DNA of 64,000 bases from Candidatus Latescibacterota bacterium. Its GTDB lineage: Bacteria > Latescibacterota > UBA2968 > UBA8231. How positions within the stretch are numbered: the stretch's first letter is position 1; every line of letters begins with the position of its first letter. The notes under the pieces are model-generated. The model worked only from the letters and a program-made list of their open reading frames with translations, searched no databases and was not told the DNA's origin. Shown in pieces: positions 21,132 through 23,680 of this stretch. The DNA is taken from NCBI GenBank assembly GCA_963422735.1, contig OY730476.1, forward strand, positions 1,344,001 to 1,408,000, read 5' to 3'. The position numbers were made by a program, and so were the translations under genes.

Positions 21132-22223
21132 TCAAAAATCCATCGCCGGCGGTCCCGCATAGCCGATGCTTTGCCATCCGGCGACATCGCCGCCTTTGAA
21201 GCGATAGGGGTGCGGATACAGCTTGAGCGTGCGGTCTGCAAAAGGCAGAGACACCCGCTCGTGCTCCCGATGGGCCGAGCGCACCAAGGCAATGGCCACT
21301 TCGAGCGAGTGGCGGTAATCGTCGCCGCTGCTATACGGCTCGGTGCCAGCTTGATGGGCGCGTATCAGGCGCTCGACCGTATAGGCAAAAGCATCCGCCG
21401 CCTGCCGCTCCAAAAAATCGGGATACACCACAGAAGCGGCCGCGCCAGTCCCTTCGATCAACGCGGGCCGCGGGCGTGCTAAAAAGACCTGCCCGCGCTC
21501 GCCAGCGACTGAAACAAAGGTCGGCACGCGGCCATCCGGCTCAGGTGCGACGATCTCGCAGACGATGCCGCCGCTCAGGCCCAAGCGACCGTACGCGGGC
21601 ACATCTCCCTCCTCTGTAGGAGTGCCTTCCGCCACGTACCCCGGCTCCGCCGGCAAGGTATAGCCTTCCACCCACTCCACATCCATCCCGGTGAGGATGC
21701 GCAGAGCGGCGATTTGTACGCAACCTCCGCCCGACACCTCGGTCGGCAGCCCGCCCGGGATCGCTGCTGCCGTCAGCCGACCAATATGCCCCTGCCTCAC
21801 CCACTCGACCACCTCGGGCATATGCGGCGTCGCCCATCCGGCTTGAGCGCAGCCGAACAAGGTGTCGTGCTCCCGGCAGATGCGGATCATTTCGTCGGCC
21901 TCGCGTAGCTGGTGAGAAATCGGCTTTTCGCAGGAAACGACCCGCACGCCAGCGCGGGCGCAGGTAGTGACGCAGGGATAGTTTTGGCTCACTGGGACGA
22001 CTGCGGAGACAATGTCGGGCACTTCGGCCGCCAAGAGGCCATCGAGATCGTCGTACACCTTCTCCACGCCGTAGCGCCGGGCAATGGCGTCCCGCCGCTT
22101 TCTGGCGCGATCGACGAGGCCGACAATCGCGCAGTTGGGATGGGCCGCGTAGGCGCGCGTGTAGTAGCGACCCCACGTGCCGGCCGCGCCGACGACGGCC
22201 ACCCGGTATTGCTTATTGGTCAT
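21132..22223 (-). CDS. Gfo/Idh/MocA family oxidoreductase
   Basis: VAVVGAAGTWG, CEKP. Confidence 0.88.
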   Translation of the reverse strand: MTNKQYRVAVVGAAGTWGRYYTRAYAAHPNCAIVGLVDRARKRRDAIARRYGVEKVYDDLDGLLAAEVPDIVSAVVPVSQNYPCVTTCARAGVRVVSCEKPISHQLREADEMIRICREHDTLFGCAQAGWATPHMPEVVEWVRQGHIGRLTAAAIPGGLPTEVSGGGCVQIAALRILTGMDVEWVEGYTLPAEPGYVAEGTPTEEGDVPAYGRLGLSGGIVCEIVAPEPDGRVPTFVSVAGERGQVFLARPRPALIEGTGAAASVVYPDFLERQAADAFAYTVERLIRAHQAGTEPYSSGDDYRHSLEVAIALVRSAHREHERVSLPFADRTLKLYPHPYRFKGGDVAGWQSIGYAGPPAMDF

Positions 22224-22243
22224 GGTATCTGTCAGCCTCCTGA

Positions 22244-22272
22244 TTGACGGGGATAGAGGTCGCGGTTATATT
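22244..22272 (+). promoter_or_regulatory. sigma70-type promoter of the tyrS leader
   Basis: TTGACG (22244-22249), 17 nt, TATATT (22267-22272). Confidence 0.75.
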
Positions 22273-22288
22273 TTTGCGCGGAGAATGA

Positions 22289-22354
22289 ATGATGCAAACC
22301 CTACGCACGGATCGCCGCTACCTCTATTATACCGCGTTTCATAGAGAGGGGTAG
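22289..22354 (+). CDS. Tyr-rich attenuator leader peptide MMQTLRTDRRYLYYTAFHREG
   Basis: GGAGA RBS at 22280; TAC CTC TAT TAT at 22319-22330; lies between the promoter and an intrinsic terminator ahead of tyrS. Confidence 0.8.
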   Translation: MMQTLRTDRRYLYYTAFHREG

Positions 22355-22386
22355 TGCGTCCGCTGAATCGTCTAAACCGCGTGTAC

Positions 22387-22413
22387 AAGCCCCTGTAATC
22401 AGGGGCTTTTTTT
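22387..22413 (+). terminator. Attenuator terminator upstream of tyrS
   Basis: AAGCCCCTG-TAAT-CAGGGGCTT followed by a U run, about 20 nt before the tyrS ATG. Confidence 0.85.
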
Positions 22414-22432
22414 ATGCCCATAAGGACCAGCA

Positions 22433-23680
22433 ATGAACATCATACCCGATCTTCAATTTCGCGGCTTGATCTACCAAGTCACCGATCTCGACGGCCTCGC
22501 CGAGCGCCTCGCCGCCGGTCCGATCGCGCTCTACAATGGCTTCGACCCGACCGCCGACAGCCTGACGGTGGGCAACCTCGTGCCGATCCTGCTCCTGCGC
22601 CGCTTCCAGCTCGCCGGCCACAAGATCATTGCCTTGGCCGGCGGCGGCACTGGTCTGATCGGCGATCCAGGGGGCAAGACCGAGGAGCGTCAGCTCAATG
22701 CCACCGACGTCGTGGCCGAGTGGACTCAGCAGGTCAAAGCCCAGCTAGAGCGCTTCCTCGAATTCGACGGCCCCAACCCCGCGACCATGGTCGATAATTA
22801 CGACTGGCTCGGCCAACTCGCAGCCATCGACTTTATGCGCACGGTCGGCAAGCACTTTCCCGTCCCCTACATGCTGGCCAAGGACTCGGTCGCCTCGCGC
22901 CTAGCAACGGGTATCTCCTATACCGAGTTCAGCTACATGGTGCTACAGGCGTATGACTTCTTGGTCCTCAACGAAAAATACGGCTGCGAGTTGCAGACCG
23001 GCGGCTCTGACCAGTGGGGCAATATCACCGCCGGCACCGATCTGATCCGCCGCTCCGCAGGTAGCCGGGCCTTTGGCCTGACCTGCCCGCTAGTGACCAA
23101 AGCAGACGGCACCAAATTCGGCAAGACCGAGGCGGGCACGGTCTGGCTCGACGCCGCTAAGACCTCGGCCTACCAGTTTTACCAGTTCTGGATCAACGCC
23201 GAGGACCAGAAGGTTGTCGACTACCTGAAAACGTACACCTTCCTAGAGCAGGACGAGATCCTCCAGCTCGCCCAAACCGTCCGCAACCAGCCCGAACGAC
23301 GCGAGGCCCAGCGCACCCTCGCCGCCGAAGTAACGGCCCTAGTACATGGAGCCGATGCGACGCGCCGGGCCGAAAACATCTCGCACGCACTTTTTTACGG
23401 AGTGTTTCAGGACCTATCCGAGGACGAAATCCTCGAAGGCTTTGACGACGTGCCAACGCACGCGATGGGTCAGGAGGAACTGGGGCTGGTCGATTTGCTC
23501 GTCGCGGCCGGCGTCTCTCCCTCCAAGCGCCAAGCCCGCCAAGATGTGCAAAACGGCTCAATATATATCAACGGCGAGCGCTGCACGGACATGGCGCGGA
23601 GAATGCAGCACCGACATGGCCTACACGGCAAATACCTGATCGTGCGCCGGGGCAAGAAGCAGTACACCCTCGTCTGCTAG
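22433..23680 (+). CDS. tyrS: Tyrosine--tRNA ligase
   Basis: GFDPTADSL, QAYDF, GGSDQWGNI, KFGKT, C-terminal S4 domain. Confidence 0.97.
   Translation: MNIIPDLQFRGLIYQVTDLDGLAERLAAGPIALYNGFDPTADSLTVGNLVPILLLRRFQLAGHKIIALAGGGTGLIGDPGGKTEERQLNATDVVAEWTQQVKAQLERFLEFDGPNPATMVDNYDWLGQLAAIDFMRTVGKHFPVPYMLAKDSVASRLATGISYTEFSYMVLQAYDFLVLNEKYGCELQTGGSDQWGNITAGTDLIRRSAGSRAFGLTCPLVTKADGTKFGKTEAGTVWLDAAKTSAYQFYQFWINAEDQKVVDYLKTYTFLEQDEILQLAQTVRNQPERREAQRTLAAEVTALVHGADATRRAENISHALFYGVFQDLSEDEILEGFDDVPTHAMGQEELGLVDLLVAAGVSPSKRQARQDVQNGSIYINGERCTDMARRMQHRHGLHGKYLIVRRGKKQYTLVC

Follow-up and report, generated by a model that had tools for sequence, protein, structure and literature searches.

The tyrS gene is a textbook T-box gene. 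A survey of attenuation in synthetase operons was reportedly made by Lopatovskaya et al. in 2010. In Bacillus subtilis the terminator before tyrS is read through when the charging of tRNA-Tyr is low (cited in the available part of PMC1262725), and the T-box senses uncharged tRNA by RNA-RNA contact without translation. Leader peptides have been described before other synthetase genes. In Escherichia coli the pheM leader belongs to the attenuator of pheST (Springer et al. 1985, as cited in the available part of PMC11802643). Leaders of trpS and leuS have been described in Streptomyces, and the authors state that their search of Actinobacteria yielded no RNA element for the genes of tyrosine (PMC1262725). 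In S. lividans, leaders are found before alaS, thrS, trpS and leuS (PMC8079986, available part). In Corynebacterium glutamicum the aroR leader, with Phe-Tyr-Phe, precedes aroF, and the supply of Tyr was without effect on its attenuation (Neshat et al. 2014, as cited in the available part of PMC11802643). In the literature searched, leader-peptide attenuators are described for other amino acids but not for tyrosine, and no Tyr leader before tyrS was found there, although an earlier in-silico mention of tyrS is possible.

The window considered here is the whole stretch of 64,000 nucleotides analysed, from a genome of Candidatus Latescibacterota. Its tyrS gene (22433-23680, plus strand) codes for a tyrosine--tRNA ligase of 415 amino acids (TIGR00234, 404.5 bits with a cut-off of 113.8, E 5.2e-121). 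On the basis of sequence comparison, this gene is probably controlled by a classical ribosome-mediated (leader-peptide) transcription attenuator, which would sense the charging of Tyr-tRNA. An earlier note, made from the letters of this DNA, knew of no characterised Tyr leader-peptide attenuator for tyrS. None was found in the literature searched either, but leader peptides have been published for other synthetase genes. As far as the literature was searched, the Tyr specificity and the tyrS target are new, while the mechanism itself is classical.

The pheM/pheST system and the tyrS leader have in common a leader peptide rich in the cognate residue, alternative hairpins and an intrinsic terminator directly before the synthetase gene. 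However, they differ in the amino acid (Phe and Tyr, respectively), in the phylum and in the controlled gene, tyrS being single-subunit, and the tyrS leader has no membership in an Rfam family by sequence. When positions 21800-22900 were scanned against Rfam with permissive filters, eight weak matches were obtained at E up to 10; no family reached its gathering score, and no T-box was among the matches. The best match was Phe_leader (RF01859; 26.4 bits, E 0.063), which is below the gathering score of 55 and derives from the ATG region and the terminator.

A T-box or other tRNA-binding leader might be expected at this locus, tyrS being the founding T-box gene in Firmicutes. However, the Rfam T-box model (which we take to be RF00230) has no match here, in line with the absence of a T-box consensus stated in the earlier note, and just 125 nt lie between the leader start codon and the T run. 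The Rfam scan contradicts this explanation, which is highly improbable and was rejected. Paenibacillus tyrS loci have, before their terminators, a sequence that we take to be the T-box consensus. The B. subtilis T-box and the predicted attenuator have the gene in common and the read-through of a terminator at low charging of tRNA-Tyr (the former as cited in the available part of PMC1262725), but the sensing of tRNA by direct contact is absent here.

The neighbouring gene is divergently transcribed (21132-22223, minus strand) and has weak matches, below the cut-off, to dehydrogenases of the Gfo/Idh/MocA type. The spacer between it and tyrS is 210 bp long and holds in order a promoter, a GGAG sequence, a leader ORF and a terminator, all on the plus strand. 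The promoter is of the sigma-70 type (22244-22272), with TTGACG at 22244-22249, a spacing of 17 nt and TATATT at 22267-22272, giving 10 of 12 matches; both hexamers are kept in 23 of 23 same-genus loci. The promoter scan found no further promoter-like site on the tyrS strand. The Shine-Dalgarno sequence GGAG (22280-22283), located 5 nt before the first ATG, is kept in close relatives. The leader ORF (22289-22354) consists of 21 codons and the stop codon TAG (22352-22354), has a second in-frame ATG at 22292, and is kept in relatives. The leader peptide of 21 residues is MMQTLRTDRRYLYYTAFHREG. Three Tyr codons are found among the four regulatory codons TAC CTC TAT TAT (22319-22330): TAC at 22319-22321, TAT at 22325-22327 and TAT at 22328-22330, with CTC between the first two. 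Of the aromatic codons, the window leader carries Tyr only, unlike aroR, whose attenuation is unaffected by Tyr according to the available part of PMC11802643.

Four pairing segments can be recognized, all on the plus strand. Segment 1 (22309-22330), defined by folds and pair counts, is the 5' arm of the 1:2 hairpin and spans the Tyr codons. Segment 2 (22341-22363) contains the G run 22348-22351 and, directly 3' of it, the leader TAG, and its partner is either segment 1 or segment 3. Segment 3 (22379-22395) comprises the 5' arm of the terminator and the 8 nt before it, and pairs either with segment 2 as antiterminator or with segment 4. The intrinsic terminator (22387-22413) has a 9-bp stem, a 4-nt loop and seven T, and its stem core is invariant in the alignment of 31 leaders (A1). 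Its hairpin (22387-22408) is formed by AAGCCCCTG, the loop TAAT and CAGGGGCTT, with 9 pairs, 6 of them G-C, and the T run occupies 22407-22413. The Shine-Dalgarno sequence of tyrS, AAGGA (22422-22426), was read directly. The T run ends 19 nt before the tyrS start in the window, the same-genus range being 19-43 nt. The promoter, the ribosome binding site, the ORF of 21 residues with its three Tyr in four codons, and the hairpin with U run before tyrS are all in place as the earlier note had described them.

The following sequence of events may be proposed for these parts. We infer that transcription would start a few bases 3' of the -10 box, and that a ribosome would translate the 21-codon leader while RNA polymerase proceeds. 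With ample Tyr-tRNA(Tyr), the ribosome would reach the TAG inside segment 2 and cover this segment; the 3:4 terminator would then form, and most transcripts would stop at the T run before tyrS. When charged tRNA(Tyr) is scarce, the ribosome would stall at the Tyr codons in segment 1 and so open the 1:2 hairpin. The freed segment 2, located 17-29 nt 3' of the Tyr codons, would bind segment 3 while segment 4 is still to be synthesized; no terminator would form, and tyrS would be transcribed. Without translation, both 1:2 and 3:4 would be expected to form, and transcription would end.

Judged from the window by itself, the signals barely exceed chance. Promoter-like sites number 2 vs 0.7 +/- 1.0 in shuffles, terminator-like sites 4 vs 2.0 +/- 1.5, and the leader fold has a z of -2.2, with 6 of 200 shuffles equally good. 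It is the comparative conservation that lifts the attenuator above chance. In public genomes, the tyrS loci nearest to that of the window belong to MAGs labelled Candidatus Latescibacterota, with a few labelled Gemmatimonadetes, and tyrS is present in 40 of 41 relatives. In 23 of 23 same-genus tyrS loci the promoter, the ORF, the Tyr run, the stop within the G-rich segment and the terminator are all kept. The leader is kept even where the upstream neighbour differs (L004, L012, L017 and L018), and it therefore travels with tyrS. Tyr leaders are also found at more distant loci, with tyrS 62-72% identical. At seven loci of another family (g2), tyrS lies directly behind another gene and has no leader.

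A covariance model, R1, was built from alignment A1. It matches 29 of 151 genomes of the phylum and 7 of 46 genera, all in family f1 (28 of 63), which is the family of the window and consists of MAGs whose relatives carry the label Candidatus Latescibacterota. Such a model misses diverged forms, and the sequence 5' of tyrS was therefore collected for all matches to the gene in the family. The family sample contained 76 genomes, 69 of them with a tyrS match; G005, which lacks the 5' end, was omitted, and 68 regions were left. A region was counted when an ORF that starts with ATG or GTG and has 10-40 codons was followed, 15-110 nt after its end, by a hairpin of -9 kcal/mol or lower with at least 4 T. 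By this rule, two or more Tyr codons (2-6) are found in 54 of the 68 regions, one Tyr in 7 and none in 7, whereas of 51 control tyrS 5' regions from other taxa (L024-L030, L062 and L065-L110, excluding L075, L081 and L086, which are labelled as the window's phylum) 4 have at least two Tyr, 10 have one and 37 have none; kin genomes are not independent, so these tallies overstate the number of independent cases. The terminator and a Tyr-bearing ORF occur together in 61 of the 68 family regions. At least one case with two or more Tyr is present in 14 of the 18 genera of the family, at tyrS identities down to about 62-65%. The conservation of the Tyr cluster and of the ORF in relatives, which the earlier note had named as a check of its reading, is borne out. 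A chance arrangement of promoter-like, ORF and hairpin signals, which the weak single-window statistics would allow, is contradicted by the conservation both within the genus and over the family, and with only 4 of 51 controls alike it is extremely improbable. It was rejected.

Seven family regions have no Tyr ORF (G155, G105, G076, G102, G120, G156 and G159). In G155 the contig is cut at 101 nt, and in G076 the hairpin has no T run. In G105 (L188, the same as L086) the layout is kept, with two Tyr codons, G run, stop and terminator, and the frame has no ATG, GTG or TTG after the promoter; this leader is either decayed or has an unusual start codon. Six of the nine g10 genomes and one of g7 have a single Tyr codon in the leader, which by the logic of attenuation is a weak sensor. 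At six loci of genera g10 and g6 (L189, L190, L193, L199, L183 and L185) the leader ATG is found a few bases after the -10 box, and the leader ORFs of these genera are therefore probably on leaderless transcripts. In this they resemble the leaders of S. lividans, which are likewise short ORFs with cognate codons before synthetase genes, some of them leaderless. However, in the available part of PMC8079986 the S. lividans set has no tyrS case, and several of its members have no clear terminator.

The codon content of the leaders was assessed in 39 leaders with 36 distinct peptides and 769 residues. Tyrosine accounts for 124 of the 769 residues (16.1%), from 1 to 6 per leader, compared with 3.2% in ORFs of at least 400 amino acids. 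Among relatives the Tyr codons vary synonymously between TAT and TAC, and in alignment A1 the length of the Tyr run varies by whole codons, in frame. In the leaders TAT is used 86 times and TAC 38 times, and the genome prefers TAC (16395 vs 8571 TAT). The genome has one tRNA-Tyr gene, with anticodon GTA; all leader Tyr codons therefore depend on a single tRNA charged by TyrRS. The stop codons are TAG in 33 leaders, TAA in 5 and TGA in 1. Another reading frame through the leader also has a start codon in the window, but this is absent, for example, in L003.

As an upstream ORF, the leader frame might also raise the translation of tyrS by re-initiation, or it might be a small gene, the hairpin then being a leaky constitutive terminator without amino-acid sensing. 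A role of this kind has been proposed for bacterial leader genes, many of which have no regulatory codons (PMC4833913, available part). However, the leader stop and the tyrS start are separated by 78 nt and by the terminator, which is too far for coupling, and the peptide is free to vary outside the Tyr cluster and the G-rich end, as the number of distinct peptides indicates. This alternative to the attenuator is very unlikely.

Arginine is also frequent in the leaders, with 16.4% of residues vs 7.2% in the background. It adjoins Tyr (as RY or YR) in the leaders of 14 of 15 genera, and in six of nine g10 genomes the lone Tyr codon has an Arg codon on each side. In the manner of arrest peptides, a nascent Arg-Tyr context might conceivably slow or arrest the ribosome at the Tyr codon, and perhaps sense tyrosine itself, in addition to the control by tRNA charging; we regard this addition as unlikely. 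An alternative source of the pattern could be CGN codons serving RNA pairing.

The alternative pairings were followed by folding. The pairing of segment 1 with segment 2 over the Tyr codons (CGCTACCTCT with AGGGGTAGTG), foreseen in the earlier note, is present in the minimum-energy fold. The 34 leaders that were folded show, when free, the 1:2 hairpin between the Tyr-codon region and the G-rich stop region together with the terminator 3:4. With a mask that imitates a ribosome at the stop codon, the terminator alone remains in these leaders. The antiterminator pairing AGGGG with CCCCT, between the G run of segment 2 and the 5' arm of the terminator, had likewise been anticipated; it forms once the 3' arm is omitted and all RNA up to 15 nt beyond the last Tyr codon is masked. 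The masked 2:3 pairing has -13 to -20 kcal/mol in the genus, compared with about -16 for the terminator. In the full RNA with a stalled ribosome the terminator still wins thermodynamically, and the switch must therefore be kinetic.

Covariation in the stems, which the earlier note had named as a check of its scheme, is modest for 1:2 but absent for 2:3. On alignment A1, 83.0% of the 1:2 cells are paired vs 34-52% when the arms are slid, and the covariation score is 0.202 vs 0.140 in shuffles, with 0 of 500 as high. For 2:3, 83.3% of cells are paired vs 36-50% when slid, and the shuffles reach 82.4%, with 37 of 500 as high; the covariation score on A1 is 0.139 vs 0.141 in shuffles, with 285 of 500 as high. 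The duplex between the segment 2 region and segment 3, compared with dinucleotide shuffles, has a median z of -2.0, which is moderate. In 21 of 39 leaders at most 10 of 200 shuffles are as good, and L059 is worse than its own shuffles. When the partners of segments 2 and 3 were swapped across genera, the pairing was no worse (856 of 5000 permutations as good), in a test with 3 of 16 parses wrong. Of 39 leaders, 35 combine a run of four G at most 16 nt ahead of the stop with CCCC in the arm of the terminator. In view of the covariation, duplex and swap results, the antiterminator 2:3 rests on conservation and register rather than on covariation.

This bears on another explanation, in which a trans-acting factor works at the same terminator, for example TyrRS binding its own leader or some other RNA-binding protein, with the ORF being incidental or an aid to ribosome loading. 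Such a factor could equally well act through the terminator and the alternative hairpins, 2:3 has no covariation, leaders with one Tyr exist, and the Arg-Tyr neighbours could reflect a conserved RNA or peptide site. However, a factor of this kind leaves unexplained the fivefold in-frame enrichment of Tyr, the TAT/TAC swaps and the changes of the run by whole codons, as well as the Thr and the Tyr, Phe and Trp codons in the related leaders discussed below. It is considered quite unlikely.

Leaders of the same kind are found before two other genes. In the window's genome, outside the window, thrS (TIGR00418, E 1.6e-203) is preceded by a leader (L142:192-381, corresponding to G000:C1:2167491-2167680) with a 35-codon ORF containing 6 Thr in 7 codons and a 12-bp terminator. 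The Thr-rich leader is kept in most of the 30 relatives' loci, with up to 11 consecutive Thr in the genus, in comparison with 2 Thr in thrL of S. lividans (PMC8079986, available part). We read it as a predicted Thr leader-peptide attenuator. The model R1 also has second matches in G023 and G151 and one match in G152 away from tyrS, all located before the gene of DAHP synthase (TIGR00034): L140:1501-1635, L141:2130-2274 (minus strand) and L138:1501-1639 (minus strand), respectively. These three leaders have 7-10 Tyr, Phe or Trp codons and a terminator of the type found in the tyrS leaders. Like aroR of C. glutamicum, they are leaders with aromatic codons before DAHP synthase. In G152 the DAHP synthase gene looks broken, with stops or frameshifts inside, and the window genome's own DAHP synthase gene has no leader. 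The tyrS and DAHP synthase leaders are alike in layout and terminator type but only 45-53% identical (MAFFT); their common descent is likely. The codon content of the leader follows the controlled gene, with Tyr for tyrS, Thr for thrS and Tyr, Phe and Trp for DAHP synthase.

In the window's genome no leader ORF was found before pheS, trpS, hisS and leuS, nor before the weaker matches, putative valS, ileS, metG and proS. Strict intrinsic terminators are scarce, with 328 in 4.95 Mb. A strict genome-wide scan of these 328 terminators, giving 91 ORF rows, left only tyrS and thrS as convincing; a relaxed scan for leader peptides was too noisy for use. The thrS and DAHP synthase leaders gave nothing at gathering score in Rfam.

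If the reading as a leader-peptide attenuator is true, the ribosome is the sensor for the control of tyrS in an entire family of uncultured bacteria; the same would hold for thrS and, in part of the family, for DAHP synthase. This suggests that leader-peptide control of synthetase genes may occur outside Proteobacteria and Actinobacteria much more often than published work indicates. The tyrS leader is short and self-contained and can therefore be tested in a reporter. The model R1 is usable for the annotation of tyrS leaders.

Of the 24 runs listed, those of RNA contain 9-13% of the words, as contigs of relatives. The RNA contigs of X15 (85% likeness) cover 22150-22359 and 22432-23100 and not the terminator, in data where ends and strand are not visible and DNA in the libraries is possible. 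The contigs of X16 and X17, with ends and strand hidden in the same way, stop elsewhere.

Several minor observations concern the surroundings of these genes. Only two other hairpins of the form CCCCTG...CAGGGG with a T run are found in the genome, at G000:C1:3394674 and 2274887 (minus strand), and they have identical 12 bases upstream, as if closing two copies of one gene. In L173 (G160) and L200 (G083) about 150 nt separate the attenuator terminator from tyrS, with an extra short ORF in G083. The tyrS match of G149 (C1:1164558-1165922) is in two pieces, and that of G102 (C18:16967-18211) has two TGA and one TAG inside; these are either broken genes or assembly errors. In L024 (G025, another family of the class), a short hairpin-like stretch immediately ahead of tyrS lies between two arrays of the 7-base repeat TCTCCCG.
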